From Kagunavirus LM02P1, in the sequence record OZ035819.1: 43,420 nucleotides of DNA; one strand, 5' to 3'. The notes below the pieces were generated by a model. It saw nothing but the letters and a program-made list of their open reading frames with translations. It was not told the DNA's origin and made no database searches. A program made the translations under genes and the position numbers. This document shows, piece after piece, positions 4,334 through 43,420 of this stretch (its first letter is position 1; every line of letters starts with the position of its first letter).

Positions 4334-4336
4334 TAA

Positions 4337-4799: not shown

Positions 4800-4805
4800 C
4801 CACCT

Positions 4806-17154: not shown

Positions 17155-17157
17155 CCA

Positions 17158-17652
17158 ATGAGTGATTTGAGATTCCCTATGTCCCTTCGACCAATAGTGT
17201 CGAAGGGGTACTCCCAAACGCGAGGGAGTAATATCTGGCGTACAGAAGTGCAAGGCGGCGTTCCGCGTCAGGGCCGAGACACATACTTCGAACCGGTGCC
17301 GATTAGCGTTACCCTGGTTGTGTCGTCACTAGGCCGCCAGGCTTTCTATAGCTTTCTGAATAACATAGACGGCGGGGCGTCTTCGTTCATCATGCCTCAC
17401 GATACCGGTTTAGGTATCGAAGACCACCAGGTTCTTATTACGTCTGATATTAGCGATAGCACTGACGATGGTAAGAACTGGGTGATTACGTTCACAGCCA
17501 CCGCGGAGCGGACTGCGATTCAGGAAGACACATGTCTTACTAAGAATCTACCGGATTTGTTTGGTTGTTATGGTGATTGCTTGGGTGGGTTCCTTAAAGC
17601 ATACGGAACCGCGCAGTCAACGTTTCCACGAATTTGGGACCCTATGCAATGA
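17158..17652 (+). CDS. minor tail protein (lambda M-like)
   Basis: 164 aa; KGYSQTRG and FYSFLNNIDGGASSF resemble the lambda gpM pattern; follows tape measure. Confidence 0.5.
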   Translation: MSDLRFPMSLRPIVSKGYSQTRGSNIWRTEVQGGVPRQGRDTYFEPVPISVTLVVSSLGRQAFYSFLNNIDGGASSFIMPHDTGLGIEDHQVLITSDISDSTDDGKNWVITFTATAERTAIQEDTCLTKNLPDLFGCYGDCLGGFLKAYGTAQSTFPRIWDPMQ

Positions 17653-22565: not shown

Positions 22566-22718
22566 ATGAGCGAAGAAATTATCAAGATAATTATGCAGTT
22601 TATGATGCGCGTAGATCTAAAAGGTCAAGAAGTTCCGGCCTTCAATAAGGTCATGTCGGCGCTGCAACATGAGATTGATTCTAAGAGCGAGCCTAAGAGC
22701 GAGCCTAAGAGCGAGTAG
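22566..22718 (+). CDS. small protein with C-terminal (SEPK)x3 repeat
   Basis: ATG at 22566 with RBS GGGAGG; 50 aa; ends in tandem 12-nt repeat. Confidence 0.35.
   Translation: MSEEIIKIIMQFMMRVDLKGQEVPAFNKVMSALQHEIDSKSEPKSEPKSE
22683..22715 (+). repeat. tandem 12-nt repeat AAGAGCGAGCCT x2.75
   Basis: Direct in-frame repeat at the 3' end of ORF 22566..22718. Confidence 0.8.
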
Positions 22719-22744
22719 CCCTGTGCTTAATTTAACATAAAACT

Positions 22745-22768
22745 AAGGCCCCAAACGGGGCCTTTTCT
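22745..22768. terminator. bidirectional intrinsic terminator between convergent late (+) and replication (-) transcription
   Basis: Hairpin AAGGCCCC-aaac-GGGGCCTT followed by TTCTC. Confidence 0.65.
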
Positions 22769-22906
22769 CTACTCTTCGGATAACTTCTCCAGAATAAACG
22801 CCAGTTGCGCATTGGCGGCGTCTCTCTGTTGCCGTAGTCTTAGGACTTCCTCTTCGAGTTCCTTGATACGTTTCTGTAAAGCTGGGATTGGGGCTACGAT
22901 GTTCAT
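22769..22906 (-). CDS. small coiled-coil protein (45 aa)
   Basis: ATG at 22906 overlaps the stop of 22903..23088; sequence IKELEEEVLRLRQQRDAANAQL; ends at the terminator. Confidence 0.3.
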   Translation of the reverse strand: MNIVAPIPALQKRIKELEEEVLRLRQQRDAANAQLAFILEKLSEE

Positions 22907-23088
22907 TTCTTACCATCACTTTTCTTGAAGCTACGTTTTATATCTGGCAGCGTGTAGCATCTCGACTTCTCATATTTCCCGTCAGAGCTTACCAAAACAA
23001 AGCTGTTGCCGTCGTTTGATATGTACTCGATGGTGAAAGTATTGAACGAATGTACGCTGTATATTTCATCGCCAACATTAAGTTTCAT
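22903..23088 (-). CDS. hypothetical protein (61 aa)
   Basis: ATGA-coupled to the helicase gene upstream. Confidence 0.4.
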   Translation of the reverse strand: MKLNVGDEIYSVHSFNTFTIEYISNDGNSFVLVSSDGKYEKSRCYTLPDIKRSFKKSDGKK

Positions 23089-24509
23089 TTCTTACCTCGT
23101 CTCTTCATGTAATTAAGCAACTCTTCCTGTACTGATTTCTTCTCGTCTGTACGCGCGGAAACAACCTCATCCAGCGTGTCTTTAGCGACGATGTGATAGA
23201 GGAACACCGGGCGCTCGTGACCGGCCTGTTTCTGACGAACGGGCCCTATGCGTTCTACAACCTGTAAATAATGCTCAAGGTTCCAGCCTTGCGAAATAAA
23301 CGCCAGATGATGCCCGCCGTCCTGTAAATTCAAACCATGCCCGGCTGACGCAGGATGAACGCATAATATTTCGATTTCACCTCTGTTCCACGCTTCCATC
23401 TGTTTATTACCCTTAGCACCTTTGGCGAACGCCTGTGCCTGCGGGAATCGTTTCAGGATGCGCTCAAGCTCATGCTTGAACTGGTAGGCCACCAGTAACG
23501 GCGCACCCTGCAATTCCTCAACAATGGACTCCAGTGCGTCCAGTTTCGTGTCGTGCACTTTCTCCCAGTCTTTGGTCGCTTCGCCGTCTGGCCCTGACAC
23601 ATACACGGCACCAGATGCAATCTGTAGGCACTTCGACGTCTTCGCAGCGGCGTTAGCCGCTTCAACTTCCCCGCTCTCCAGTTCTGCGAATAGCTTTTCC
23701 TCCATATCGATGTACGCCTGACGTGCTTTCTTCGGCAGGTCAATTTCCACGGGCACGATAATCGGCGCTTCACATCCAAACCACTCGGCAGCATCAATCG
23801 TTAGACTAATGTCCTTCATCTTCTGGTGAATCTCGGTATCCGCTCCCGGGCGAGCGTGATACTCCCGCGCCATCGCGGATTTACCTTTCTGTACCGAGTT
23901 AAACCAGCGGTCGGTGAATGCCGTGTACGACGACCCCAGGCGCTCGCCCGCGTCGATAAACCAGTTCTGACCCCACAAGTCTTTGAGGCCATTTGGCGAC
24001 GGGGTGCCAGTAAGGTTAATGAAACGCTTAACCTTTCCGAATGCCACCTTACTGAGCGCCTTTGCTCGCTTGCTTCCACCAGAACGGCTACGGAATGATT
24101 TCAGCTTCGTGCTTTCATCTGCGACGATAACGGTAAAAGGCCAGTCGTCTTTGCCGTAGTAGTCAATCAGCCACTCGATAACTTCGTAGTTCGTACACAC
24201 TACGTTAGCATCGGACTCAAGCGCCGCGATGCGGCGCTTTTCTGAACCAGTTGCATCGACGACATTCAGGCAGGGGAATTGCCATTTCTCTTGTTCTGCC
24301 GGCCACGTACCGGACGCAACGCGCAACGGGGCGAGGATTAACACACGGTCCTCTTCAGTAAGCTGCCCGTTACGGAACAGTCGGTTTAATGTCCACAGTA
24401 CGCTGCCGGTCTTCCCGGCGCCCATGCTTGCCCATATGTTGCAGCGATGATGTTGCAACATGAACGAAGTCATGAGTTTCTGGTACTCGCGCCTTTGAAA
24501 CTTAGACAT
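23085..24509 (-). CDS. SNF2/DEAD-like superfamily 2 helicase
   Basis: 474 aa; Walker A ASMGAGKT, DExx-type box VIVADESTKLK, C-terminal helicase domain. Confidence 0.8.
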   Translation of the reverse strand: MSKFQRREYQKLMTSFMLQHHRCNIWASMGAGKTGSVLWTLNRLFRNGQLTEEDRVLILAPLRVASGTWPAEQEKWQFPCLNVVDATGSEKRRIAALESDANVVCTNYEVIEWLIDYYGKDDWPFTVIVADESTKLKSFRSRSGGSKRAKALSKVAFGKVKRFINLTGTPSPNGLKDLWGQNWFIDAGERLGSSYTAFTDRWFNSVQKGKSAMAREYHARPGADTEIHQKMKDISLTIDAAEWFGCEAPIIVPVEIDLPKKARQAYIDMEEKLFAELESGEVEAANAAAKTSKCLQIASGAVYVSGPDGEATKDWEKVHDTKLDALESIVEELQGAPLLVAYQFKHELERILKRFPQAQAFAKGAKGNKQMEAWNRGEIEILCVHPASAGHGLNLQDGGHHLAFISQGWNLEHYLQVVERIGPVRQKQAGHERPVFLYHIVAKDTLDEVVSARTDEKKSVQEELLNYMKRRGKK

Positions 24510-25185
24510 GATTAGCCTCGTAAACTGCTTTTGCGAAACCCCGCGGGGTAAGGCTGCGGATTGTTTTTGTCCTCACCGATTTACCGCCTAATTTATTGTG
24601 TTGGTCAGAATACTCATCATCCACAGCAACGACTGACTTAACCGGCATTACGAAACCATTACCTGTCCAAAGACATGTCTTTTTAGGGTACGCGTCCCTC
24701 GGTTTTATGTACTCTGGGAACATTGGATGTGTGTCGTCTTCGGGTAAATAGCCGCCGTATTCGTACGGGTTGAACGTGTAGTCAGGCTTACGCCATAAAG
24801 ACGAAAGAACGCTAACCGGATTCTCAATCATATAGGGCACGTTGTACCTTTTAGCCAGACGCGCCGCCACTTTGCATGTAATCACGGCCTCTACCTGAAA
24901 AGTTGGATTCTTCTTCCGCTTCGTTTCAAAATGCGCCGCGCCGCTAACGGCTAAATCTGTGCACGGAGGGAACGCGAAAATAATATCCGGTGCAACCTCG
25001 AAGTCGAACTTATTATCAATCCACGCGTTTATATAGTGAATGTTCTCGTGTTCAACTTTTGCACCCAATCGCGCGTAGTCGCCGTGGTCGGCGCCGTCGT
25101 AGTTGAAACAATAGCAAGTATGGCCTGCTTCCGCCCACGGTTGGGCCATAAGGCCCGAACCGTCAAACAATGACCAGACAATCAT
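24502..25185 (-). CDS. compact DNA cytosine-C5 methyltransferase-like protein
   Basis: 227 aa; motif I-like LFDGSGL, motif IV-like DIIFAFPPCTDLAVSG (Pro-Cys dipeptide), motif VI-like MIENPV; no obvious target-recognition domain. Confidence 0.5.
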   Translation of the reverse strand: MIVWSLFDGSGLMAQPWAEAGHTCYCFNYDGADHGDYARLGAKVEHENIHYINAWIDNKFDFEVAPDIIFAFPPCTDLAVSGAAHFETKRKKNPTFQVEAVITCKVAARLAKRYNVPYMIENPVSVLSSLWRKPDYTFNPYEYGGYLPEDDTHPMFPEYIKPRDAYPKKTCLWTGNGFVMPVKSVVAVDDEYSDQHNKLGGKSVRTKTIRSLTPRGFAKAVYEANHV

Positions 25186-25373
25186 TTTGCCACCAGCACC
25201 AGTTCTTTACGCCCGAACGCCGTAACGTTGCCTGTTACATCTTCGATAACCAGTTTACCGTTCGACTCGACGTACACCGTATCAACGGCAGCCGGACGTC
25301 GGGTCTTAACGTTGAAAATCATGTCGCCCGGTACGATGTCACGTGCGGGTTTGCGGTCATATTCGTGTTTCAT
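25182..25373 (-). CDS. hypothetical protein (63 aa)
   Basis: Coupled to the methyltransferase-like gene. Confidence 0.4.
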   Translation of the reverse strand: MKHEYDRKPARDIVPGDMIFNVKTRRPAAVDTVYVESNGKLVIEDVTGNVTAFGRKELVLVAK

Positions 25374-25412
25374 TTCTCAATTCCTTATAGTTAAGGCCCC
25401 GAAGGGCCTGTA

Positions 25413-25667
25413 TTAGTTAGATAATTCGCCTTGAACTTGCTTAATAAGTTCTCTGGCCGTTGTGAAGTCTACGGACAGCCCTTTAGCGACGTCTTCCGCA
25501 AGCACCTTGTGACCAACTGACCCGAAGCCCAGGATACGGTTTACTTCCGAAACCTTCATAGACCATGAGTAATTAACTGACGCCCCTGTGTATTTACCGA
25601 TACGAACAGATGAATCGATTGAACCAATAATCATGGTGTTTACTGACAGTTGAAGTTCGATAGCCAT
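25413..25667 (-). CDS. hypothetical protein (84 aa)
   Basis: ATG at 25667 downstream of promoter 25702-25730. Confidence 0.4.
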   Translation of the reverse strand: MAIELQLSVNTMIIGSIDSSVRIGKYTGASVNYSWSMKVSEVNRILGFGSVGHKVLAEDVAKGLSVDFTTARELIKQVQGELSN

Positions 25668-25668
25668 T

Positions 25669-25983
25669 TTATAATTCCTTATATTGTTGGGGTATGTGCT
25701 TACTATAATAGTCTGCTATTAGGGTGTCAATCTGTTTTATCGAACCAACGACAAAAACATTTGCGCCACGTTTGCGCATCCGCTCATGCTCACGTAGCTG
25801 GTGGGGGTCAGGCTTCGTGTTTTCGTCTTTCTTAACCTCGACGAACCAGACGACGCCGCCGGGGAGAATTGCCAGCAGGTCGGGGGCGCCGGAACGCCCC
25901 TCGTAGGAAAGTTTACGAACGAGGCCACCAAGGGCCTCGAATCGCTCCTTTGCATATTTCTGTATTTTGCCTTCCGGGGTCAT
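25669..25983 (-). CDS. VRR-NUC domain nuclease (PD-(D/E)XK fold)
   Basis: Motif GAPDLLAILPGGVVWFVEVK (D...E-V-K core); ATG at 25983 preferred over upstream TTG at 25998. Confidence 0.65.
   Translation of the reverse strand: MTPEGKIQKYAKERFEALGGLVRKLSYEGRSGAPDLLAILPGGVVWFVEVKKDENTKPDPHQLREHERMRKRGANVFVVGSIKQIDTLIADYYSKHIPQQYKEL
25702..25730 (-). promoter_or_regulatory. sigma70-type promoter TTGACA-N17-TATAGT inside the 3' end of the VRR-NUC gene
   Basis: Near-consensus hexamers read on minus strand; would drive 25413..25667 and downstream genes. Confidence 0.5.
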
Positions 25984-26132
25984 GAGCGCAGAACCCAAGT
26001 AAGGAAAGCCCCGCCCAGAACGGCAACACCGACAAAATTAAAGAACAGGCCATAGCAGAACATCGCGGCTATTCCCGCACCGAGTAGAAGTGCGAGCATG
26101 GTTACTATCGTCCAAAATACAAGCATTGTCAT
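25980..26132 (-). CDS. small membrane protein (50 aa, 2 predicted TM)
   Basis: ATG at 26132 with GGAGG RBS; hydrophobic throughout; stop overlaps VRR-NUC start. Confidence 0.35.
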   Translation of the reverse strand: MTMLVFWTIVTMLALLLGAGIAAMFCYGLFFNFVGVAVLGGAFLTWVLRS

Positions 26133-26214
26133 AATACGCACTCCTCCCGTTTCGTATGCTCAATCCCACAGCGCGGACAGATTCGACAGTCTTCTTCATA
26201 GAACCAGTAAATTT

Positions 26215-26346
26215 TCATTCCAGCACCCACAGATAAATTGCGATGAACATGCCCAGTACGGCGGCCATCATGCTGTATTGACCCTCGTGGCAGTAGACAC
26301 CGGCGGCGAATCCCGCCAGTACCGCGATAATAAGTTTACTTAGCAT
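26215..26346 (-). CDS. small membrane protein (43 aa)
   Basis: ATG at 26346 overlapping the 3' end of the polymerase gene; hydrophobic. Confidence 0.3.
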   Translation of the reverse strand: MLSKLIIAVLAGFAAGVYCHEGQYSMMAAVLGMFIAIYLWVLE

Positions 26347-28609
26347 AGCGGTACACCTCTTCCCCAGCCCATGTTAACGGGAACCCTTCAGCCCATTCAG
26401 GTAATGCGCATAGCAGGTCACCCATCTCTTTAACCGTGTACTCCGGCGTATCTGGCGTTTCAGCCACACATTCGTCGTGTACGTGGAGCACAATCGGGTA
26501 GCCCGCCGCCTCGACCGTCAGGAGTCCGTTAACTAGTAAGTCACGGCACAACGCCTGGATGATGTTTTCACACAATTTTCCGCCGTGGGTGTACAAAGTT
26601 GTCCACTGGCGGGTGGTCTGATTCTCACCCTGGTACTTGATGCGGACGTTAGTAGTGACACGCCCATCCTCGTCAGTTTCTTTAGTAACGCTCAGACCTA
26701 TGCCGGGGTATGACATGATGCGCCCCGACGGCAGTTCCACGCACAACCACCAACCCGGCACAAAGTTACCCTGTCTGTCTTTCTCTTTAGTACGCCAGAT
26801 GCGGATGGCTCTGTCGCCGTTAAGGCGTACTCGGGCCCCCGCCCAAAACTCTCGTCCCGGATTTCTAATGGCGGCTATCACCGAATCCTTAAGGTCATTC
26901 CAGAATTTCACTGTTTCCGGATGGGCTTCCCGCCACATGCGCTTAATGGCGTCACAGGTGCGCCAGACTTCTTTAGGCAGCACATAAGAGGCCCGTTCAT
27001 CTTTTTTACCAGGCTTTGGCGGGCGTTTAGCCTCCTGAATTCTGGCCCATTCGTAGCCACGGGCGGTAGCCGCCCAAATGTGGTCGGGGAACGTGCCCCG
27101 CATTGTCTCTGTCATTTTAAAGAGGTCCAGCCCGTAAGTTTTAGCCATAGTCATAAAAGCCCCTACGCCCCCCTCGTAGCCGAGGCCGAGTTCGCAACAT
27201 TTCCCGACCTGACGTAGGTCCTTACGGGTGGCTTTTAGTTCTACGGGGTCCATGCCGAACATCTTACCAGCTGTGGCGCAATAGATATCAATCCCCGCGC
27301 GGAACGTCTCAAGGGCGGACGTCTCCCCCGCCGTCCAGGCTAGCCCGCGCCCTTCCACGTTTGAGTAGTCGGCAACGAGCAACTTATTACCTTTTTCCGG
27401 GATGATGCAACTGCGGACAGTCGAGGCCGTTAGTTTAGACACATCGAAACGGCGATGCGCCCGGCCCTTTAAAAGCAAATTGATGCCAAATGATAGCGGG
27501 TTAAGCCTGCGGTTCCAGTCTTCGTCGGACTCCCACGGCTGGCGCACAAGTTTCTTTTCCTCGTTAGTCGGGTCGTCGTGGTAGTACCCGCGCGACAGGT
27601 TCTGCGGTTGGAACCCTTTACCCGCAAATCGTAAAGTGCGCTTTGCCCCACCGTACTGGATGCAACCGCGGCGGCGGCCGTCTTTGGACCGTCCTAGCAG
27701 GAGCGGTTTGTATTTTGTCGACGCCGTGGAGGCCGCGCCGAGGCGCATCTCAATGATTGTGCGCGCATCGTCAGGTAAGTCGTCGTCCTCTAGCAAACCT
27801 TCGAGCGTTGCTTTCTGTGCATTATAGATATTGTAGGCCGGTGCCAGCTCCCGAAGGATTGGCAGGAAGTCTTTACCCGTTAGCTTCCCGCCAAATTTAG
27901 CCCTGGCCTCGTTTTTTAGCTCTTGCTTGTGGCGTTCAACTGCTGCTACCGCCGCCTCAGCAAGAGCCGCATCAACAAAGAAGCCTCGGTCGTTGATTAA
28001 CTGGTCAAGTTCAAGTACACGGTCCTCGAAATCGGAGTTACCCCAACGTGGCAGCTTATGGAAGACTTCACGCATCGCTGTGATGTCGCTCACGGCGTAC
28101 TTGATGAACAGCGCCCACTCGTCCGGGTGCGTCTCCGCGGTGTAGCGGCGGATTTTGTAGTTCTTCGGCGTCGGTTTAGAAAAACGCTGAATCAGCGCCT
28201 TACCGCGTTTGTCTTTCGCATTGTCCGCAGATACGCCCAACACTTCGCACAATGCGTCAAGTGAACCCGGCAGCGCGTGACGAAACGCCCAAATCATCGT
28301 ATCAATGGTGTTGCTTACCGGAATATCAAAGCCCCAGCAGTGCTTCATGATGAGTCTGTCGAACATTGAGCCGTTGTGCCACACCATCTTAATGCGACTG
28401 TTAGGCTTAACCAGACGGCGTAACGCGCGGTGCAAATCCCCCGGCATGTCGCTGCCGTTGGTGCAATCCCACACCTGCACAGGCTCGTCGTCAAAAGCGT
28501 ATGTACAGATAAGGACTTCTGTGGTTGGGTGTTCGGCGTAAGCGTAGGAGCCGACTTTCTTTAAATCGGCTTCGGAGAATGTTTCAAAGTCAAGGTATAA
28601 GTAGCTCAT
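26336..28609 (-). CDS. family A DNA polymerase with 3'-5' exonuclease domain
   Basis: Exo I YLDFETFS; Pol motif A LLVADYSNVEGR, motif B RQVGKCCELGLGYEGG, motif C VLHVHDE; ATG at 28609 with AGGAAA RBS preferred over TTG at 28663. Confidence 0.85.
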   Translation of the reverse strand: MSYLYLDFETFSEADLKKVGSYAYAEHPTTEVLICTYAFDDEPVQVWDCTNGSDMPGDLHRALRRLVKPNSRIKMVWHNGSMFDRLIMKHCWGFDIPVSNTIDTMIWAFRHALPGSLDALCEVLGVSADNAKDKRGKALIQRFSKPTPKNYKIRRYTAETHPDEWALFIKYAVSDITAMREVFHKLPRWGNSDFEDRVLELDQLINDRGFFVDAALAEAAVAAVERHKQELKNEARAKFGGKLTGKDFLPILRELAPAYNIYNAQKATLEGLLEDDDLPDDARTIIEMRLGAASTASTKYKPLLLGRSKDGRRRGCIQYGGAKRTLRFAGKGFQPQNLSRGYYHDDPTNEEKKLVRQPWESDEDWNRRLNPLSFGINLLLKGRAHRRFDVSKLTASTVRSCIIPEKGNKLLVADYSNVEGRGLAWTAGETSALETFRAGIDIYCATAGKMFGMDPVELKATRKDLRQVGKCCELGLGYEGGVGAFMTMAKTYGLDLFKMTETMRGTFPDHIWAATARGYEWARIQEAKRPPKPGKKDERASYVLPKEVWRTCDAIKRMWREAHPETVKFWNDLKDSVIAAIRNPGREFWAGARVRLNGDRAIRIWRTKEKDRQGNFVPGWWLCVELPSGRIMSYPGIGLSVTKETDEDGRVTTNVRIKYQGENQTTRQWTTLYTHGGKLCENIIQALCRDLLVNGLLTVEAAGYPIVLHVHDECVAETPDTPEYTVKEMGDLLCALPEWAEGFPLTWAGEEVYRYAK

Positions 28610-28761
28610 TTCTTTTTCCTTAAATCTAGTGCCTTCGTTTCGCTGAGTCTTATTTTCATACAATCACGGCAAATCCACACATGCCGGTATCCGGCCCGGT
28701 ACTTATCCGCGTACCACGGAAGAGGTTTCATATAGCGATAAACGTGCTTACAGAAAAACAT
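28606..28761 (-). CDS. small Cys/His-containing protein (51 aa)
   Basis: ATG at 28761; CKH...CRDC; stop TGA overlaps the polymerase ATG (ATGA coupling); coordinates checked by hand translation. Confidence 0.3.
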   Translation of the reverse strand: MFFCKHVYRYMKPLPWYADKYRAGYRHVWICRDCMKIRLSETKALDLRKKK

Positions 28762-28777
28762 TATTTTCGACCCTTAG

Positions 28778-28801
28778 TAAAAAGGCCCAATGAAGGGCCT
28801 T
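28778..28801 (-). terminator. intrinsic terminator after SSB gene
   Basis: Hairpin AGGCCC-ttcatt-GGGCCT followed by TTTTT on minus strand. Confidence 0.55.
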
Positions 28802-28820
28802 AGTTAAATTGATTCAGATA

Positions 28821-29447
28821 TTAACGGCGGCGACGTTCGCGGCGCGGTGCGTCATCTTCTTCGTCGTCTTCCAGGTCATTGACGCTTGCAGCGACTTTAG
28901 AACCGCCAAACGCTTTACCTTCGCCGACGTATTTAATCGCCAACAGGTTAACTCCGAGGACTTTGTATTTCTGGCTGAACCAGATTTCTACGCTTACGTT
29001 AGCAACGCAGCCGCTGTAAACCTGTTCGCCTTCAATCTGTTCGCCGTCTACGTTGAAGTCCTGCTCTACCTGAGTCTCACCTTTTTTAGAGGTTACAATC
29101 AGTGGCTGTTTCTGTGCTTTCGCTTTGAAGTAGAAGCCTTCCGGGAAGTCTTCAAACGGATTGTCGCGCTCGGCAATGTCTTTAATAGCGCATTTATCCA
29201 TGTGCTTACCTTCGCCGTAGTTGGACTTCATCCATTTCTCGGCAGCAGCTGCGCCTAACGCCTCTTCAACTACAGCGTAAACCGTGTCGTAGAGTGCGTC
29301 GATTTGAGCATGGTCGGACGGCAGGATAATAGTTGCGCTGTACTGGCCTTTAGTGATTGAGCCATCATCGTTTTCACGGTCTTTTTCGCGTTCGAATACG
29401 TTAACCCAAGCAGTGTTTACTTTACGCAGATTTAATTTCAGTCCCAT
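28821..29447 (-). CDS. single-strand DNA-binding protein (DUF2815-like)
   Basis: 208 aa with acidic C-terminal tail DLEDDEEDD typical of SSB; own near-consensus promoter; adjacent to DUF2800-like nuclease. Confidence 0.55.
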   Translation of the reverse strand: MGLKLNLRKVNTAWVNVFEREKDRENDDGSITKGQYSATIILPSDHAQIDALYDTVYAVVEEALGAAAAEKWMKSNYGEGKHMDKCAIKDIAERDNPFEDFPEGFYFKAKAQKQPLIVTSKKGETQVEQDFNVDGEQIEGEQVYSGCVANVSVEIWFSQKYKVLGVNLLAIKYVGEGKAFGGSKVAASVNDLEDDEEDDAPRRERRRR

Positions 29448-29499
29448 TTGATTTCTCGCTTTTCAGTTTACTCCGGGAACTGCCCGGCCAGTGATTAGA

Positions 29500-29528
29500 A
29501 ATATAATAGCTAACTATTCAGGTGTCAA
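29500..29528 (-). promoter_or_regulatory. sigma70-type promoter TTGACA-N17-TATATT for SSB gene
   Basis: Near-consensus hexamers read on minus strand, ~50 nt upstream of the ATG at 29447. Confidence 0.6.
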
Positions 29529-29791
29529 CCCTTCCATCCAGTTATTTTCTCAACTATCAATACGTATTCGAAAGGCCACTCCAAATTCTGCACCCATTTA
29601 ATTTCCTTCGTCTGGTCCAGTTGCTCGGGGTCTACCGTTTCATACTTAATCGCAACGTAGACCGTTAGTGGAAGAAGGATAATTAGAAGCGGCACTAACA
29701 TTGCCCAGTAACAAACAAATGCCACAAACCCGCCAAATACCCTGAACGTTTTACGAATCATTTCAAATCCTCCTCTGTTACCCGATTCCAC
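29525..29791 (-). CDS. small membrane protein
   Basis: Hydrophobic segment FVAFVCYWAMLVPLLIILLPLTVYVAI; start uncertain (overlaps nuclease gene end). Confidence 0.35.
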   Translation of the reverse strand: MESGNRGGFEMIRKTFRVFGGFVAFVCYWAMLVPLLIILLPLTVYVAIKYETVDPEQLDQTKEIKWVQNLEWPFEYVLIVEKITGWKG

Positions 29792-30999
29792 TCAGGCCGT
29801 TTGTCGTCTGCCGTTGCAACGCATGGTGCGCCTGGCTTACGGGTGATGAAGTCTTTCAGTTCTTCTTCCGGTATTACTTTAACCGCTTCGGTAGGGGTCA
29901 TGAGCACTTCTTTAGTCAGCTTGTCGCCGTAGAGTTCTGCCACTTTCTCTGCGTCTTTCCACGCACGATTACCCGGCCTGCCTTCAACCAACTTGTACCC
30001 CGGCACTTTCTTACCGGAATGCAAAGCGGCGGCCATAGCTTTCTCAACCTTGTCGATGTGCTGGCGCAACAACGGCAACTTCTCATACTCAGATACGAGT
30101 TGCTCCGGCGTAAGTTCCAGTGCAAAGTCATCTTCCAGTTCTCCGGCCAGTACCGAATTAACGGTTTTTGTACGCGCGGCGCACTGTTCAGAGAACCGGC
30201 ACCACTGACAGCCATCGACCGACGGCCTGAAGTCCGACGCCTTCAGGTTCTTCTTACCGCGGAAATAGGCATCAAGAGCCAACAGCGCGCGTTTCTGGGC
30301 AAACTTAGCGAACAGCTCCAGCCCCTCAGCCGAGATGTCCCACTCCGACGCGCCACCCGCGTACGGCTGGAAGATAACCAGGCGAACTGTTGTTATGTGA
30401 TAACGTCTCTTGAGTCGGCGATAAACACCGAGAGCATAGAGCATAAGCTGTTTGTTTTCTTTCGCTTCGACACGATGCCGCCCTGTTTTAAGGTCGCCAA
30501 TAATTAGCATGTGCTCGTCTGTGTTCGCCAGCTCCTGGACGGCAACAAGGTCGGCGGTTCCGAATGTCTCGACGCCTTCGTAACCTGGATGCAGCACCTC
30601 AGTAAGATTGACGCGCATCTCCAGTTTTGCGTAAGTAGCCACGTCGATAATCGCTTTGCAGTAGTCGGTGTACTTTGTACACTGGTCAATCATGTCCGCC
30701 GTAATAAGTACCGCGCCTTTCATCGGACTGATTAGCGCCTTAATCTGGCCTTTACCCTCATCCAGTACATATGCACCTACTTCACGTGCTAACGGTAGCG
30801 CAGTTCCGCGGATATAGGCATTTAGGTGCACTTCTGCGATTGTATGACATGCGGTCCCTGTAACGGCAGCTTTACCCGATTCGTTAGGAATGTCTTTTTC
30901 ACACGCCAGTGATGCGGCACAGGTAAGCCACTTTTTAGCACCTGATGGCGACAGTAAGGCGTGCACATCGTTATTGCCGCCGCGTTCTTTTAAAATCAT
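29758..30999 (-). CDS. PD-(D/E)XK nuclease, DUF2800/Cas4-like
   Basis: 413 aa; N-terminal LSPSGAKKWLTCAAS motif as I recall for this family; sits between SSB and primase as in many phage replication modules. Confidence 0.55.
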   Translation of the reverse strand: MILKERGGNNDVHALLSPSGAKKWLTCAASLACEKDIPNESGKAAVTGTACHTIAEVHLNAYIRGTALPLAREVGAYVLDEGKGQIKALISPMKGAVLITADMIDQCTKYTDYCKAIIDVATYAKLEMRVNLTEVLHPGYEGVETFGTADLVAVQELANTDEHMLIIGDLKTGRHRVEAKENKQLMLYALGVYRRLKRRYHITTVRLVIFQPYAGGASEWDISAEGLELFAKFAQKRALLALDAYFRGKKNLKASDFRPSVDGCQWCRFSEQCAARTKTVNSVLAGELEDDFALELTPEQLVSEYEKLPLLRQHIDKVEKAMAAALHSGKKVPGYKLVEGRPGNRAWKDAEKVAELYGDKLTKEVLMTPTEAVKVIPEEELKDFITRKPGAPCVATADDKRPEWNRVTEEDLK

Positions 31000-31493
31000 T
31001 TCTCGGCTCCGTTAACTGTAAACCCGTATTTAATTTCGGCTTGCCTACGAGCCTTAGCCGCGTTCTCTAACCTATCGTAAGCACCTAAATAAATTGGCGC
31101 CCCATCTACATAAATTCTGGCGACCCACTTACCAGAGCGTTTATGAAACCCAACGCCTTTAACACCTGAAGCATTGTCAGTCCGTATTTTGGTGCCGTGG
31201 GCGATACTACCTCGTCGCATTTTTATAAGATTTTCTATTCTGTTATCAGTTCTATCTTTATTTGCGTGGCGAATTACTTCCCCTGGCGCTATCTCCCCAT
31301 TAAACATCTCCCAAACCACGTGGTGGATAAGTTTAGTAACCCCGTTAAAACGTAGTATTTTGAATTCACTTCCGTCGTTATCCACCCTCACACTCCCAGC
31401 TTCTTGGCCTATTTTTACCGATTTTGATGGTCTTATCTTCCAATACAATTTCCCTGTGACAGGGTCGTAGTCAAACAGTTCATGCCAATTCAT
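30996..31493 (-). CDS. HNH homing endonuclease with C-terminal AP2 DNA-binding domain
   Basis: HNH region HHVVWEMFNG...IRHANKDRTDNRIENL; AP2-like region GVKGVGFHKRSGKWVARIYVDG; ATG at 31493 with GGGAGG RBS; locally AT-rich by eye. Confidence 0.7.
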   Translation of the reverse strand: MNWHELFDYDPVTGKLYWKIRPSKSVKIGQEAGSVRVDNDGSEFKILRFNGVTKLIHHVVWEMFNGEIAPGEVIRHANKDRTDNRIENLIKMRRGSIAHGTKIRTDNASGVKGVGFHKRSGKWVARIYVDGAPIYLGAYDRLENAAKARRQAEIKYGFTVNGAEK

Positions 31494-31762
31494 ACCCTGA
31501 CCTCCCACTGGTCGATTAAATGCCGTGTCTTATGGTCACAATGCATCGCCCAGCTATACATCGACTCGAAGACATAAAAGTCACTTTTAACGAAAGTCGT
31601 GCGCTTAATCTGCGACAGGTGACGGCCTATATCTTTCGGCTTTGGTACTTTGCCTAAGAACGCCATCTCTTCCATCTGGTGCGCACCCGACGGCGCACGT
31701 AACAGCCACAACACCTCTGTGTTATCCCGGCGGTCGATGCCGCGGTAGAGTTGGTAAATCAT
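31490..31762 (-). CDS. hypothetical protein (90 aa)
   Basis: Stop overlaps HNH start (ATGA coupling). Confidence 0.4.
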   Translation of the reverse strand: MIYQLYRGIDRRDNTEVLWLLRAPSGAHQMEEMAFLGKVPKPKDIGRHLSQIKRTTFVKSDFYVFESMYSWAMHCDHKTRHLIDQWEVRV

Positions 31763-31804
31763 ATTCCGGCCCTCTGTTAAAGCGGCCCGAAGGCCGCAGG
31801 TAAA

Positions 31805-32317
31805 TTATTCTTCTTCGAAATACTTGTTCTTAATCGCCGTCAGACGTTCCAGGTATTCAGCCAGGTCTTCGTCTTTAATCGCGGCAATCTTCATCTTCTT
31901 GCCGGTGAACTCTTCCAGCAGTTCATCGGAATCGTCACACGCGGCATCGCTCGGACCCTCGTTAATCGCATCGTCGATAGCCTGAATCTGGTCGCGCAGA
32001 GACTGGTAATCGACTTCTTCCGGCTCTGGCGTCGGCGCATCTACAGGTTTAGGGGCTGGTTTTGATTTGCCAGGCTTGCGTTTAGGCTTTTCTTCTTCTG
32101 CCGGTTTAGTGTCAACGAGGTCTTCACCTTCAACCGGGATTTCTTTCCCGATGCCAGTGCCTGGGTCGACTTCAAGCACCTCTCCAGTAACCGATACATC
32201 TACAAGCATTTCACCTACATGCTCAGTTGGCGGCACCGGTCGTTTCGCGCTATTCGCAGCAATCAGTTCATGCGCAACTACGAAACGTTCCAGTAATTTT
32301 AAAAATTGGTCTAACAT
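31805..32317 (-). CDS. acidic hypothetical protein (170 aa)
   Basis: ATG at 32317; Pro/Lys-rich linker and strongly acidic C-terminal half; preceded by conserved leader and promoter. Confidence 0.45.
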   Translation of the reverse strand: MLDQFLKLLERFVVAHELIAANSAKRPVPPTEHVGEMLVDVSVTGEVLEVDPGTGIGKEIPVEGEDLVDTKPAEEEKPKRKPGKSKPAPKPVDAPTPEPEEVDYQSLRDQIQAIDDAINEGPSDAACDDSDELLEEFTGKKMKIAAIKDEDLAEYLERLTAIKNKYFEEE

Positions 32318-32348
32318 TTGTTTCTCTCCTCTCGTTTGGTATGGGCTA

Positions 32349-32378
32349 ACTATAATAGCTAACTATTCATGATGTCAA
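32349..32378 (-). promoter_or_regulatory. sigma70-type promoter TTGACA-N18-TATAGT for 31805..32317
   Basis: Read on minus strand; leader 32318-32348 shares 15-nt AAACGAGAGGAGAGA with the leader at 37094-37122. Confidence 0.5.
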
Positions 32379-32442
32379 TGGGCTTTTCTAAAATAATTAA
32401 TATGGTACTATTCACATATCAACTAACTAAGGAGTAATTGAC

Positions 32443-32658
32443 ATGCAACCATCTGAACTAGGCATCCGTGTAGAGCAACGCCGCAAAGAACTCGGCATCT
32501 CCCAGCGCCGTCTGGCTGTCCTGGCCGGTGTTTCTCAGGGAGCGATTAACCAGCTGGCACTTGGAGTAACTCAGGACGTCCGACCGGCGACGCTGTTTAA
32601 ACTGGCGGAAGTGCTGGAAGTAGACGCCAAGTGGCTGGCGTTCGGTGAAGGGGCTTAA
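32443..32658 (+). CDS. XRE-family helix-turn-helix transcriptional regulator
   Basis: 71 aa; HTH LGISQRRLAVLAGVSQGAINQLALG; RBS AAGGAG; only + strand gene inside the - strand replication module. Confidence 0.7.
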   Translation: MQPSELGIRVEQRRKELGISQRRLAVLAGVSQGAINQLALGVTQDVRPATLFKLAEVLEVDAKWLAFGEGA

Positions 32659-32673
32659 CGCCCCTTTCTTTTT
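32648..32673. terminator. bidirectional intrinsic terminator
   Basis: Hairpin AGGGGC-ttaac-GCCCCT followed by TTCTTTTT; overlaps XRE stop; primase stop at 32676. Confidence 0.6.
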
Positions 32674-32675
32674 AT

Positions 32676-34943
32676 CTATTCCAAATCTTCCTCTGTCACT
32701 GTCAGCATTTCATTCGGTTCGTATATTGTCTTCGGAATCTTGTTATCCGTTATTCGGGTGTTCAGCCTGTAACGGCCTGGAATTATCTGATTGTTTTCGT
32801 CGGTCCCTGGCACAAGATAACCCGCCTCAACCATTTTCTTAATCTTCCCACGTTCTATGGCTTCTTTGGAGTTAAACGCCTTTGCGTTAGGGTCGGACTG
32901 TGCGAGCTTATTTGCCGCAGCTACTGTGATACCTTCGTTGCCATTGTAGGTTCCTTCCGCCAGTTCAAACGCCGCCAGTATCGTGGCCTCCGAACTGTTG
33001 ACGGCGTTCTCTACGGTTTTACGTACGTTTTCTTTACCTTCCTTTGTCAGCCCTTCTTCCCGCTCTTTCTCCTCATCGGTCTTGAATGGCTCGAATCCCC
33101 AAGGCATCAATACAAGCGCCTTGTGCGGTTCAGGCAGGTCGAGGTTTACGATTGTGCCGTATTCCTCGGTGGAACCGAGGAACTCAACCGCGCGGTACTC
33201 TTTCGGCGGAGGTGCTTCACGGAACTGTACCGACTCCAGCACCATGCCAACCGTCTTCTGTTGGGGGCCGTGCTTAAATTTCGAGTGGTATACGTTTATC
33301 TGACGGTCGGTTGCACGTTCGATTGTCAGTTCCACGTCGACACCCGCATACAGCGCCCCGCTGCCACGGGCTTTCTTTCCGCCCTTCGGGGTATGGTGGA
33401 CAACGCCTACCGCAGCTTTAGTCGCGTCGCGTACTTCTTTCAGGATGGCGATAACTTTACCCATACCGATCGCCGTTGATGAACTGTTCTCGTCGAACTT
33501 ATCAATCGTCAGGGCCAGCGTCTGGTTGAGTGTGTCGAACGCAACCATACCAATTGGCTCGTCGCCTGCAGTTTCGCGCATCAACTTAATCAGGTTTTTC
33601 AGTTTGCCGACTTCGCCCATGTCGATGACATGTACGTAATCTTTACCTTCCTCGCCATATTTAGCGGCTAGTGCATCAATACGGGTGCGTGTAGCGGCAC
33701 CGCCCTCGCCATCGATATAGAAATGGTGGCAACGCTGGGTATCCGCCCCCGCAAACCGGTATCCGGCGGCGCTGAGGTACATCATCCCCAGCGTATAGAA
33801 CGATTTGTACGTACCTGATTCCCCGACAATATCCCAGATACAATCTGACGGCATGTACCCTTCAACGACGAAATCCGCCTTTACTGGTTCTGGTAGCTCG
33901 TCCTCCTCTGAGTCATCATTGTCTTCCAGGTCGTCGAGGCTGCATGAAACTGATTCACGCGCACCCCAGCCGATAGCCTCTGCGACTTCACTGAATGGCA
34001 GCCCTGTAGCGTCACACGCATACTTCCACACCTCTTTCGGCGACATGCCCTCGGTTGCCGTGATGTCGGTGTCGTGAATCATGGTTACGTTAGGCGCTTC
34101 GTATCCCTCGCGCGGGAAGCACAACAGGAAGTCGTCCGGGCGTGGAGTCGGGTCGCTATAGTTTTCGGCGTGTTCTGGTGTGGCGGGCATCTTAAGGCCG
34201 CGTGGCGTCAAGATGCCGCCGTGCTCGAAGGCCAGTGCTTCAAACGCATCGGTAAACGCAGTGCGCAGTTCTTCCGGTATCTGGTAATCCGATGCGCTGC
34301 TCACCTCGTAATCCGGGATGCCTTCCAGTAACTCGCCGGGGTCAATCAGGTCATTGCGGCGCGACCAGATAACCTGAGAGCCAACCGGCGGCAGGTACAT
34401 CGGCTGGGACAGAGTAAACCCGCTGCGGTCCGCGCCCATGCCTTTGAAGAAGTGCTCCAGCAACCCGTGACGTACGCGGATGATGTCACCGCCTTCGACC
34501 GGGCGGGCCAGCGGCATGACGACGCGAAAGCGTGGAGACTCATCGGTATGGGATGCCGTGGTGTAAACGCACATGGCTTTACGGCCTCGCTTAACCAGGC
34601 GCACTGCTTCCTGGTACTCTTCCGGCGTTGCGCTGTCGAAGTCAAGATACGCCAGTGACGATTTGGTTACAGACGCGTCACAGCGATAGAAGAAGCCTTT
34701 ACGCGCATGCTTAAAGTCACCTGTTTCCGGGTCTTTTACGGTGCTGTGCGTTGAGTCGCACGCGGCAGTGATATACCCCGGCGCTGTCTTAGGGTTAATC
34801 CCGTCATGAACAGCATCAAGCGGCTGGATTAACTCTTTCAGGTCGTCCAGTGTTGCCGTATGTGTGGTTCTGACGTTTATATCCTTTTTCTCCGCCCGCG
34901 CGTTGCGACGGGACCACGAGTAGGATAAAATTACATCGGACAT
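32676..34943 (-). CDS. bifunctional primase-polymerase (AEP) / P-loop helicase
   Basis: 755 aa; AEP motifs AYLDFD and TTASHTDESPRFRVVMP; C-terminal Walker A GESGTYKS, Walker B-like MVAFD. Confidence 0.75.
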   Translation of the reverse strand: MSDVILSYSWSRRNARAEKKDINVRTTHTATLDDLKELIQPLDAVHDGINPKTAPGYITAACDSTHSTVKDPETGDFKHARKGFFYRCDASVTKSSLAYLDFDSATPEEYQEAVRLVKRGRKAMCVYTTASHTDESPRFRVVMPLARPVEGGDIIRVRHGLLEHFFKGMGADRSGFTLSQPMYLPPVGSQVIWSRRNDLIDPGELLEGIPDYEVSSASDYQIPEELRTAFTDAFEALAFEHGGILTPRGLKMPATPEHAENYSDPTPRPDDFLLCFPREGYEAPNVTMIHDTDITATEGMSPKEVWKYACDATGLPFSEVAEAIGWGARESVSCSLDDLEDNDDSEEDELPEPVKADFVVEGYMPSDCIWDIVGESGTYKSFYTLGMMYLSAAGYRFAGADTQRCHHFYIDGEGGAATRTRIDALAAKYGEEGKDYVHVIDMGEVGKLKNLIKLMRETAGDEPIGMVAFDTLNQTLALTIDKFDENSSSTAIGMGKVIAILKEVRDATKAAVGVVHHTPKGGKKARGSGALYAGVDVELTIERATDRQINVYHSKFKHGPQQKTVGMVLESVQFREAPPPKEYRAVEFLGSTEEYGTIVNLDLPEPHKALVLMPWGFEPFKTDEEKEREEGLTKEGKENVRKTVENAVNSSEATILAAFELAEGTYNGNEGITVAAANKLAQSDPNAKAFNSKEAIERGKIKKMVEAGYLVPGTDENNQIIPGRYRLNTRITDNKIPKTIYEPNEMLTVTEEDLE

Positions 34944-35002
34944 ATTGTATATTCCTTCAGCAAGTAATTTGGCCTCGGCGTTCGCCGCGTCGGGGCTTTC
35001 TT

Positions 35003-35278
35003 TTATTCCAGGTCGCGGGAGATATTACCCTCGGGGACCAACACTTTTCCAATACTTCTCGCTTTCTCTGTAATAGGCGTCGCTCTTGTTGCCCGATAAA
35101 ACTTTCCTTTATTAAGAATCTCACCATGTCGCTCGAGCACATCTAAAGCATGTTTAATCGGGCTTACACCGTAATTATCCAACCGGTATCTCCGAAGCCC
35201 GTCTACTGTAAAAGCGCCGTTCGCTTCGGTCAGTCTGCGTGCACACATTAATATGTTTTTCTGGAATTTAGTTAGCAT
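35003..35278 (-). CDS. hypothetical protein (91 aa)
   Basis: Second gene of leftward early operon. Confidence 0.4.
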   Translation of the reverse strand: MLTKFQKNILMCARRLTEANGAFTVDGLRRYRLDNYGVSPIKHALDVLERHGEILNKGKFYRATRATPITEKARSIGKVLVPEGNISRDLE

Positions 35279-35447
35279 CTTTTACGTTCTCCTTAATCCA
35301 CGCCTCCACAGTAGCGCGGTCAAACGTACCCGGCTGACGGTAGCCGTTAATAACACGACAACACTCCGGGAACTTTCCTGACCGAAGCCAGCGATTAAGA
35401 GTCATAGGGGAAACCCCGATTAAGTCTGCTACTTCTTTCTGTGTCAT
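35268..35447 (-). CDS. AlpA/excisionase-type HTH DNA-binding protein
   Basis: ATG at 35447 with RBS; motif MTQKEVADLIGVSPMTLNRWLRSGKFP. Confidence 0.55.
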   Translation of the reverse strand: MTQKEVADLIGVSPMTLNRWLRSGKFPECCRVINGYRQPGTFDRATVEAWIKENVKDAN

Positions 35448-35476
35448 TTTATGCGCCCTCTTTATCAAGTGAAACA

Positions 35477-35505
35477 ACTATAACACCTACAATAGCCAAA
35501 CACAA
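35477..35505 (-). promoter_or_regulatory. sigma70-type promoter TTGTGT-N17-TATAGT for leftward replication operon
   Basis: Hexamers with 17-nt spacer read on minus strand upstream of 35447. Confidence 0.45.
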
Positions 35506-35868
35506 CCTATTGACAAAATAAAATGTAGCTGTAAAATCAACGTATCGAAGAGCTTTAGTTCAGAATTACTTAGAAACAATATTCTTAAGTCTCGGGTACT
35601 TAAAGCCCCGCCCTAAAGCGGGGCGCTAAATAGTACTCTTGGTAACGTTAGTATCTAAGTTTCCTCAAAGTAACAGCAAGTGGCAAGAAAGCCCCCGTCT
35701 ATTTAAATTTTACCCTCCTACATAAGCCACTGATAATTAAAAGTTTCTATAGATGCCGTAAGCAAGGTAGAGAGTACTTCACTCCGCTGGGGTGGGCTAA
35801 CGCCCACCCACTGCGTTGCGTACTCTTTTAAGAAACGAAAGAATCACAACGGCAACGTAACTATTCTC

Positions 35869-35897
35869 TTGCACGCCCCAACATAATAGGATACTAT
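35869..35897 (+). promoter_or_regulatory. sigma70-type early promoter TTGCAC-N17-TACTAT
   Basis: Same architecture as 37065-37093, 4676-4704 and 13908-13936; followed by conserved leader TTATCGAAACGAGA. Confidence 0.55.
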
Positions 35898-35931
35898 TCA
35901 CTTATCGAAACGAGACAGAGGAGTGAGGGTT

Positions 35932-36114
35932 ATGTTTAAACGTGGTCAGTTGGTTAAAACTGTACAGGGCCAATATGGAATTATTAAACGAGTTCCGAAT
36001 AAAGTTCCAGGGTCGTACCATCTCACGCACCCAGAATGGGACTTTGACGTGGGGGTGCGTGAAGACGAGCTAACACTCATCGGCAACAATTTTAAATTCA
36101 AAGGGGCGAAGTGA
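35932..36114 (+). CDS. early protein (60 aa)
   Basis: ATG at 35932 with RBS GGAGTGAGGG; first gene after early promoter. Confidence 0.45.
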   Translation: MFKRGQLVKTVQGQYGIIKRVPNKVPGSYHLTHPEWDFDVGVREDELTLIGNNFKFKGAK

Positions 36115-36347
36115 TGGAAGAATTAATTTGCGTTACCAGTCTCTGCGATTACTTCACAGAAGGAAAGCGTTATACGTTAAGTATCGATGGGTACGTTACC
36201 TCTGATGATGGCGATGATTATCGGGTAACTGACGAGGATGTATATGAAGGGCGTATGGGTGTTTATACCTGGAGATGGTTAGCATTATTCACAACGGCAT
36301 CGAATCATGATGCTCGTGCCGACGACTCTGAGGGAGGTTGCCGTTAA
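36114..36347 (+). CDS. early acidic protein (77 aa)
   Basis: ATGA coupling; D/E-rich (DDGDDYRVTDEDVYEG). Confidence 0.45.
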   Translation: MEELICVTSLCDYFTEGKRYTLSIDGYVTSDDGDDYRVTDEDVYEGRMGVYTWRWLALFTTASNHDARADDSEGGCR

Positions 36348-36604
36348 TGACTAACACTGAACTGGAAACTGTTGCCGAAAAACTGCATAAGGCGCGAGTA
36401 ATGGCCCGGGGCGCTGGACTGGAGCAGTTTTACAACATGTGGCGCACCGCAACGCGCGACCCTGATTTTCTGCGAACTGGGTGTCTCTTGTATAAAGACG
36501 TTTATCCTGTTCGTGCTCGCAAGGACTACGGGTGGGTTCGTGAGACACCTAATCTTTTGTGGTGTTGGGCGCATGGTGAGTTTTGGGTAAGGGTTAAGGA
36601 CTAA
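36347..36604 (+). CDS. early protein (85 aa)
   Basis: ATG at 36347 with RBS GAGGGAGG. Confidence 0.45.
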   Translation: MTNTELETVAEKLHKARVMARGAGLEQFYNMWRTATRDPDFLRTGCLLYKDVYPVRARKDYGWVRETPNLLWCWAHGEFWVRVKD

Positions 36605-36607
36605 GTT

Positions 36608-36769
36608 ATGAGAGAAGCATCCGAACGGTGGGCCGTCGTCGAAGGGCTGCCCGTTAACAAGGGTTCAAAGAAAGAGTACCTGAACGTTAAGACGCGTCTC
36701 GCGTGGCGGGCGTGGAAAGCTGGTGTGCAGTTCCGTGCTGGTATAACAGGTGGGGTGACAGGTCAATAG
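36608..36769 (+). CDS. small basic protein (53 aa)
   Basis: ATG at 36608 with RBS AAGGA; below ORF-track cutoff. Confidence 0.35.
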   Translation: MREASERWAVVEGLPVNKGSKKEYLNVKTRLAWRAWKAGVQFRAGITGGVTGQ

Positions 36770-36792
36770 CTTACTATTTTACTGAGTGACTT

Positions 36793-36830
36793 ACGCTGCT
36801 ACACAGCAGCGTATCATTTTTCTCATTTTT
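36793..36830 (+). terminator. intrinsic terminator
   Basis: Hairpin ACGCTGCT-acac-AGCAGCGT followed by ATCATTTTTCTCATTTTT. Confidence 0.6.
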
Positions 36831-36883
36831 GTTCTATTTCACCAAACGCAACAATCGAAGCGACTATTGCAGGAGATGCAACA

Positions 36884-37057
36884 ATGATTACTAGAGAACA
36901 GGCCGAACGACTAATCACGTTAATCGACACGATGATTGATGTAAAAACCGATTTAGCAACGGCAACAGAGGAATACGCTACCTGGTCGCTTGAAGAAAGA
37001 GAAGCAGAAGCGGAGCGCGAGTTACTGGCGTTCATCGATTCCATAACACACCAATAA
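36884..37057 (+). CDS. small protein (57 aa)
   Basis: ATG at 36884 with RBS AGGAGA. Confidence 0.35.
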   Translation: MITREQAERLITLIDTMIDVKTDLATATEEYATWSLEEREAEAERELLAFIDSITHQ

Positions 37058-37064
37058 AATTTAC

Positions 37065-42546: not shown

Positions 42547-42661
42547 TGAAACTGTTGATCATCCCTAACGCCTGGACTATAGCCGTAGCTAACGACCATT
42601 ACGGCGGCGATGGTAAAAGAGCACCACGACACGGCCTATATAACTGATTGGAGAGTGAAAA

Positions 42662-42811
42662 ATGATTGAATTTGATGATGTTTTATTTGAGAAATATAAC
42701 GGAAGGGTGTTTTTGACTGTGATGTACGGTGTTTACTCAAAGTCCTTTGACGGGTTTTCGAAAGCAGATTGTATAAATCAACTACTATCGTGGGTCGCAA
42801 GACGCAAATAA
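42662..42811 (+). CDS. small protein (49 aa)
   Basis: ATG at 42662 with RBS GGAGAG; followed by terminator. Confidence 0.3.
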   Translation: MIEFDDVLFEKYNGRVFLTVMYGVYSKSFDGFSKADCINQLLSWVARRK

Positions 42812-42820
42812 CCAATAACA

Positions 42821-42845
42821 AGCCCTCTACGGAGGGCTTTTCTGT
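42821..42845 (+). terminator. intrinsic terminator upstream of the late operon
   Basis: Hairpin AGCCCTC-tacg-GAGGGCT followed by TTTCT. Confidence 0.65.
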
Positions 42846-42937
42846 ACATCCCGCCCAATCCCCTTATATAATCCCTTTAGACGCGTAGGGCGCGTCTGAT
42901 GCGCTCTGATGGTCAGACGCATATGTCAGGGGGTTAT

Positions 42938-43420
42938 ATGAAACTTACACTTAAGCAACCATCACCTGAGGTGGTGCAAGCTGCGCATGAAGAGGCTGTT
43001 AGCGCCAACCGTCGCCGTAAACGACCGCGCGGCAAACAGAGCCTTTATCAATCATCCCGTAATTCCGCGGCATTGTGGAATCCAGATTATTGCGACGAAC
43101 TGATTCGTTTCTTTGACCGCAACTCGTGGGAACTTGTGCCCACGTCCAAGGGTGATGAACGTCCTCTTATTCAGGATAAGCCCCCGTCACTGGCTCGCTT
43201 CGCCTTACACATCGGCGTTACTATCCCGATTATTAAGCTGTGGCTGCGCGAGATTCCCGCATTTGCAGAAGCCTATGAAACCGCTCAGGCGCTGGAAGAG
43301 GCGTATTTCACTGAGACAGGCGCAGCTGGTATCTCGGCTACGTTTGCTGCTGCTAAGTTGGGGTTGAATAAGAAAGAAGAATCAACGGGCGAGGGTTCAG
43401 AACCTATTGAGATTCGATTC
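42938..43420 (+). CDS. terS: terminase small subunit (5' part; ORF continues at 1..30)
   Basis: ATG at 42938 with RBS AGGGGG; no stop to window end; basic N-terminus RRRKRPRGK and HTH-like SLARFALHIGVTIPIIKLWLRE; directly precedes terL across the window junction. Confidence 0.65.
   Translation, partial: MKLTLKQPSPEVVQAAHEEAVSANRRRKRPRGKQSLYQSSRNSAALWNPDYCDELIRFFDRNSWELVPTSKGDERPLIQDKPPSLARFALHIGVTIPIIKLWLREIPAFAEAYETAQALEEAYFTETGAAGISATFAAAKLGLNKKEESTGEGSEPIEIRF

Follow-up and report, generated by a model that had tools for sequence, protein, structure and literature searches.

The terminase small-subunit gene divided between the two ends of the Kagunavirus LM02P1 record is restored by circular closure of a complete genome

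Phages P22, Sf6 and SPP1 carry their packaging genes in the order terS-terL-portal, with a small TerS encoded by gene 3 of P22 and by gene 1 of both Sf6 and SPP1. The pac sites of these three phages lie inside terS or adjoin it, Sf6 itself being a pac phage, and the first cuts of headful packaging are usually spread across tens of bases. In the lambda-like phages, cos sites are located upstream of terS. The C-terminus of TerS binds TerL in lambda and P22, and specificity domains have been described for lambda and 21 (the C-terminus of Nu1 with the N-terminus of gpA) and for P22 (the gp3 tail with gp2). Closer to the locus considered here, a pac site was predicted by PhageTerm for Shashou (PMC6776780), whose TerL is of what we call below type B; TerL of the K1G/K1H type clusters beside that of headful phages (PMC5582158); and fBC-Eco01 gave no obvious termini by PhageTerm (PMC9825357). 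The DNA described in this report is the 43,420 nt sequence of Kagunavirus LM02P1 (OZ035819.1), the whole of which is referred to as the window. It shares the terS-terL-portal order and the small TerS of P22, Sf6 and SPP1, although the solved proteins of those phages show no sequence similarity to its TerS or TerL. We hold with high confidence that the window represents a complete, non-redundant genome of 43,420 bp that was opened by convention just before terL, with headful packaging initiated at a pac site as the likeliest mode.

The window both begins and ends within terS. On the + strand the gene starts at an ATG at 42938-42940, with a GGGGG run resembling a Shine-Dalgarno sequence 8 nt upstream, and the 483 nt from there to 43420 make up exactly 161 codons, open through the last base, so that a new codon starts at base 1. 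Nine further codons (VKAVKPGVE) are supplied by bases 1-27, after which comes a TAA at 28-30; codons 162-170 and the stop thus continue the frame in phase at 1-30, again on the + strand. The last A of this TAA doubles as the first base of the terL ATG at 30-32, giving a TAATG overlap. Joining the ends by script yielded an ORF of 513 nt, or 170 aa and a stop, which bears out the first-pass annotation in its reading that terS runs off the right end and resumes in phase at base 1. Of the six frames only frame 1 of the + strand is open at an end of the window, with an open run of 540 nt on the right; the remaining five meet a stop no more than 133 nt from either end. An open run of 540 nt is, however, expected at approximately 7% of random choices of position and frame in a window as gene-dense as this. 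Such runs are therefore not rare and the open frame taken by itself is weak evidence; it is homology and independent assembly that decide the matter.

Two alternative starts were considered and set aside. In some Logan contigs terS has been called as a 183 aa product instead of 170 aa, the additional codons corresponding to window 42899-42937. This upstream start is disfavoured, being without a ribosome-binding site, and its ATG is GTG or absent in relatives. The start at 42938 is preferred because a ribosome-binding site is present, because divergent homologues begin there and because the upstream ATG is not kept. Base 1 cannot serve as an alternative start for terL either, since it does not share the reading frame of the ATG at 30, upstream of which the terL frame is interrupted by a TGA at 24-26. 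An exact look-up of the joined 170 aa protein gave no entry, which is no argument against the join since the gene caller applied to the identical Logan contig stored the 183 aa product.

The evidence for closure comes from other genomes and from a separate assembly. In a whole-genome comparison, positions 43420 and 1 of the window fall on the adjacent bases 16158 and 16159 of Escherichia phage 26, of which the window is in effect a rotation. A query made up of 600 nt from each side of the junction was found as one collinear piece in phage 26, hz69 and Ec1-ASingh, and collinearity with Kagunavirus BCH953P1 (OZ035754) extends from the first base of the window to the last. Phage 26 has an intact terS (15676-16188, 170 aa) and terL (16188-17423, 411 aa) with the same overlap as the window. 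In ten Logan/ENA contigs with an identical TerL the upstream ORF is likewise intact and ends on the terL ATG; it is 170 or 183 aa long, the two lengths being the same terS frame read from two alternative starts. The Logan contig ERR12949708_1 (43,389 bp) is the same phage, separately assembled, and is 100% identical over the junction. Its first 10,914 nt match exactly the doubled window from 37062 through 43420/1 to 4555, and its last 14,355 nt match exactly window 22676-37030. By exact string matching the 31 nt at 37031-37061 are absent from the contig and continuous in the window. The window is thus open where the contig is continuous and the contig is open where the window is continuous, and a circle of 43,420 bp is closed when the two assemblies are combined. 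The contig is independent as an assembly, although it may share reads with the window. The 31 nt missing at its ends match in length the k-mer size of the Logan assembly. This 31 nt gap is intergenic and lies just upstream of a promoter-like TTGCAC...TATAAT site.

At 43,420 bp the genome lies inside the 40.6-45.7 kb span of relatives, and the gene complement is collinear round the whole circle. It had been proposed from the letters of the window that the record is a complete genome in circular or permuted form with no terminal direct repeat, and both parts of that proposal hold: among prefixes of 8-399 nt none equals the suffix of the same length, and no additional sequence lies between 43420 and 1, where phage 26 abuts exactly and the Logan contig spans the junction. 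Position 43420 directly precedes base 1, the split ORF is one 170 aa small-terminase gene and nothing is missing. The word circular applies here to the assembly alone and implies neither the form of the virion DNA nor the mode of packaging. Rfam and tRNA scans of the entire window gave no matches.

Beyond the overlap lies terL (30-1265, + strand), which encodes a large terminase of 411 aa. Its matches to Terminase_6N and Terminase_6C pass their cut-offs and it matches PHROG 2 with an E value of 6e-33. The match to TIGR01547 (PBSX-type; E 1e-13) reaches 51 bits, far under the cut-off of 105 bits, and a sequence search of the PDB with TerL was without a significant match. The portal protein (1278-2759, + strand; 493 aa) matches PHROG 145 (E 6e-147) and DUF4055 and completes a terS-terL-portal packaging block that spans the junction. 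In some relatives this block is interrupted by HNH/homing endonuclease genes, either between terL and the portal gene (4293-4907 in our locus L011) or between terS and terL (1169-2005 in the phiP4-7 locus, L009). In the window there is no endonuclease gene between terS and terL or between terL and the portal gene.

Comparison with other members of the group showed that the end of terS is inherited together with terL. Residues 1-143 of the window TerS are identical to those of the Kagunavirus NRG857CP3 TerS, and past an invariant FAAAKLGL the TerS tails differ completely. Three tails were found (A, NKKEESTGEGSEPIEIRFVKAVKPGVE; B, SKEKPVESTEETAPTEIVFTVAEPVGKIVTTNMGEVEE; C, NKTVATEEVRDEPISEVTIKVVSGER), each paired with its own type of TerL, and these three TerL types are 39% (A/B), 40% (A/C) and 55% (B/C) identical in pairwise comparison. 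The loci compared were those of OZ035734 (L006), ZCEC5 (L001) and phiP4-7 (L009). DNA similarity to type-B and type-C phages ends at window 43362-43371 and resumes at approximately 1230 against type B and approximately 1256 against type C. From these breakpoints the exchanged unit is the TerS tail together with TerL, approximately 1.3 kb in all. In the window the left part of the type-A cassette, coding for the C-terminal tail of TerS, is placed at 43368-43420 by the break in similarity, and the right part, comprising the end of the tail and nearly all of terL, at 1-1229 by its resumption; both are on the + strand. Type-A TerL is rare, being found in 7 of 50,697 phage records, and its nearest relative outside the group is that of Plesiomonas phage phiP4-7, at 73% identity. 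The phiP4-7 TerS resembles the window TerS in the tail only (PIEIKIVDARKP against PIEIRFVKAVKP; pairwise E 0.002), and the motif PIEI(R/K)xVxAxKP is common to these two otherwise unrelated proteins. The only Pfam match of the phiP4-7 TerS is a sub-threshold one to HTH_7 (23.3 bits against a threshold of 23.8). The Kagunavirus tail travels with TerL in a manner similar to the specificity domains of lambda/21 and P22. In contrast to those systems it is co-inheritance that points to binding here, and this would be consistent with a TerS C-terminal tail that is specific for its partner TerL. Three cassettes behind an invariant TerS body may offer a natural system for mapping TerS-TerL specificity. 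As the principle is already established for lambda and P22, the cassette is a modest handle on the specificity of the terminase subunits.

We consider it probable that the phage packages its DNA by a headful (pac) mechanism, a view extended by analogy from relatives with type-B TerL to type A. In such a mechanism TerS would recognise a site on concatemeric DNA, TerL would make the first cut and each capsid would take up DNA slightly in excess of one genome length, which would give virion DNAs that are circularly permuted and terminally redundant. DNA of this kind would cause assemblies to circularise with no end signal. Weak family evidence is in keeping with this mode, namely the matches of TerL to Terminase_6N/6C and to the PBSX-type model and the structural resemblance of TerS to the small terminase of Sf6. 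The packaging evidence in the literature concerns TerL of type B, which is 39% identical to that of the window; a literature search found no termini data for type-A phages and no mapped pac site in Guernseyvirinae, and a search of 42600-43420 for pac-like repeated boxes returned only short pairs at chance level. The record of phage 26 is annotated as circularly permuted and its note also mentions cohesive ends.

That mention bears on a different reading, in which the genome closes in the assembly while the virion has fixed ends elsewhere, for example in the terS leader, either as cos ends or as short direct terminal repeats; the circle would then have arisen from collapsed repeats or joined ends. 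Closure of the assembly does not tell these cases apart. One paper, in generic text, also words the Kagunavirus terminase in cos terms. Furthermore, the 120 nt preceding terS vary hardly at all and are highly structured, and they occupy the position at which lambda-like phages have cos sites. Fixed ends are nonetheless unlikely. PhageTerm predicted a pac site for Shashou and found no termini for fBC-Eco01, the window TerL belongs to a Terminase_6/PBSX-like set and not to the families of the lambda GpA type, and independent contigs of nearly full length break at unrelated positions.

The leader to which this alternative appeals has several features on the + strand. A terminator-like hairpin at 42820-42845, with a GC-rich stem of 8 bp and a T run, closes the upstream gene block. 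It is followed at 42843-42872 by putative promoter hexamers of the sigma-70 type (TGTACA-18-TATAAT), which match the consensus at 10 of 12 positions and are invariant in 15 related phages. A structured terS leader is predicted at 42864-42941, in which two hairpins are enclosed by a stem in which the -10 region would be base-paired to the ribosome-binding site and ATG of terS. The predicted fold of 131 nt (window 42815-42945) has a free energy of -53.1 kcal/mol and a z score of -4.9. Mean column identity in the leader is 96% among the 15 phages, compared with 88-93% in the flanking genes; with a leader so nearly invariant there is no covariation to support the predicted fold. The leader could be a late-promoter leader or regulatory element, or it could be the pac region at which packaging is initiated.

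The position of base 1 can be compared with that in other records. At least seven other Kagunavirus records in the ENA (OZ035734, OZ035752, OZ035754, OZ035764, OZ035783, OZ035805 and OZ035812) have exactly 29 nt ahead of the terL ATG, which is thus at base 30 in each. The first base of OZ035754 is homologous to base 1 of the window, with the terL ATG at 30, and the same is true of OZ035805. The other five, OZ035734, OZ035783, OZ035812, OZ035764 and OZ035752, all have type-B-like TerL. In the three of these that were read directly (OZ035734, OZ035783 and OZ035812) the TerS tail exceeds that of type A by 11 codons, and locally the DNA is only approximately 55% alike by eye. Measured to the start base, the shared part of terS lies 53 nt away in type A but 86 nt away in type B, while the distance to the terL ATG is constant. 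It is this constant offset which suggests that base 1 most likely reflects a depositor convention of fixed offset and not a physical end of the DNA, and the window probably came from the same pipeline as the seven records. Owing to the overlap of terS with terL, opening the circle at this offset places the cut within terS, ten codons short of its end.

Other depositors have followed comparable rules. The records of K1G, K1H, K1ind1-3, fFiEco and AV104 open at the terL ATG, a choice that takes 1-4 nt from the terS stop as well, and those of Shashou, Snoke, Sciku, Schulenburg and Jersey open approximately 50 nt upstream of terS. The conventions seen in K1G/K1H/fFiEco, in Shashou and its three sisters and in Jersey resemble that of the window in being arbitrary openings of a circular assembly, anchored on annotation in the packaging-gene region. 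The rule applied to the window differs in that its cut, 29 nt before terL, divides terS. In further public records and in long Logan contigs, terS-terL lies at unrelated positions. The passages concerned in the paper on the ENA collection describe Nextera libraries, SPAdes and Prokka with no mention of termini analysis or PhageTerm, and they give no rule for the orientation or start point of the genomes.

A start shared by the window and all the records of one ENA collection might instead be the first pac cut made by the terminase and located by read mapping, in which case pac cleavage would fall in the last 30 nt of terS. P22, Sf6 and SPP1 have pac in or next to terS, and relatives of the window are predicted pac phages. 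Even so this appears improbable. The 29 nt to the terL ATG are constant in two cassette types despite a difference of 11 codons in the tail and local DNA that is approximately 55% alike, whereas for a cut set from a TerS binding site that lies in the part of terS common to both types, the distance from that part should stay the same, which it does not (53 nt against 86 nt). Headful first cuts would also usually be scattered over tens of bases, the passages of the collection paper that mention Nextera and SPAdes are silent on termini analysis, and PhageTerm gave no termini in another Kagunavirus. There is an equally slim chance that the shared start is a mapped pac end lying inside the exchangeable cassette of TerS tail and TerL, each cassette then having its own cleavage site. 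A depositor convention remains the preferred explanation, and the start points of permuted phage records should be read as reflecting such conventions and not taken as DNA ends.

The identity of the split ORF as the small terminase of Guernseyvirinae is supported by comparison of sequences. The joined protein matches PHROG 3064 ('terminase', in the head and packaging category) with an E value of 1.3e-70 over residues 1-166 of 170. The gene lies directly upstream of terL and overlaps it, and its product is 170 aa long; the arrangement is the same in phage 26 and ten other contigs. Homologues are labelled small terminase or terS in many phage records. Residues 1-161 were modelled, and the best structural match of the model is the Sf6 small terminase gp1. 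TerS gave no Pfam or NCBIfam match and nothing significant in PDB sequence searches. The family of its homologues is narrow, with 25 clusters, and the 21 that were aligned are at least 58% identical. This narrowness, together with the lack of a match in those three resources, would suit a reading in which the ORF encodes some other small DNA-binding protein that merely precedes terL, and the terS labels in databases derive from position and propagated annotation. We regard such a reading as very unlikely. PHROG 3064 falls in the head-and-packaging category, and the ORF overlaps terL in translation. Its C-terminal tail changes with the type of TerL in three cassettes and is shared with the HTH-type phiP4-7 gene that carries a TerS annotation, and terL is without any other adjoining terS candidate.

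The suggestion that the window is incomplete or misjoined between 43420 and 1, the frame continuing in phase by chance, draws on the approximately 7% of random ends in this genome at which a 540 nt open run would be expected and can be dismissed as next to impossible, since phage 26 abuts exactly across the junction, an independent contig spans it at 100% identity, the upstream ORF (170 or 183 aa) is intact in ten other contigs and the joined protein aligns over its full length to PHROG 3064 and to 21 homologues. The split terS is thus an ordinary bookkeeping outcome of linearising a circularly closed assembly, of a kind already known, and is no biological oddity. Annotators must join both ends, as terS will otherwise be missed or called as two fragments; once this is done the record can be used as a complete genome without truncated operons.

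The window is the genome of a virulent siphophage of E. coli in the Kagunavirus group (Guernseyvirinae), its placement in or beside Kagunavirus being based on synteny with records so named and on best hits. The terS region is 88-93% identical to that of phages of the Kagunavirus group, and matches to AV104 cover 74% of the right-hand 25 kb, with an identity of 91%. Phage 26 (MZ832314), hz69 (ON556632), AV104 (OR352935) and BCH953P1 (OZ035754), with genomes of 42.5-44.6 kb, share with the window its gene order round the circle as well as TerL and the terS tail of type A, and the BCH953P1 record is opened at the identical position. Phage 26 and BCH953P1 differ from the window in having only approximately 67-68% nucleotide similarity to it; expressed as identity multiplied by coverage in one direction, the values for these two members, the only ones so compared, are 0.67 and 0.68 respectively, which is borderline against an ICTV genus criterion of approximately 70%. 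As the phage collection holds no identical record, the window represents a distinct species-level genome. Its TerL is 98.8-99.8% identical at the amino acid level to those of phage 26, hz69, AV104 and BCH953P1, in contrast to only 39% identity with TerL of the K1G/Jersey type. A protein identical to the window TerL is also recorded as a hypothetical protein in a third-party assembly of Escherichia coli (HCQ2681025.1), which suggests that DNA of this phage or a close one was sequenced along with a bacterial isolate.
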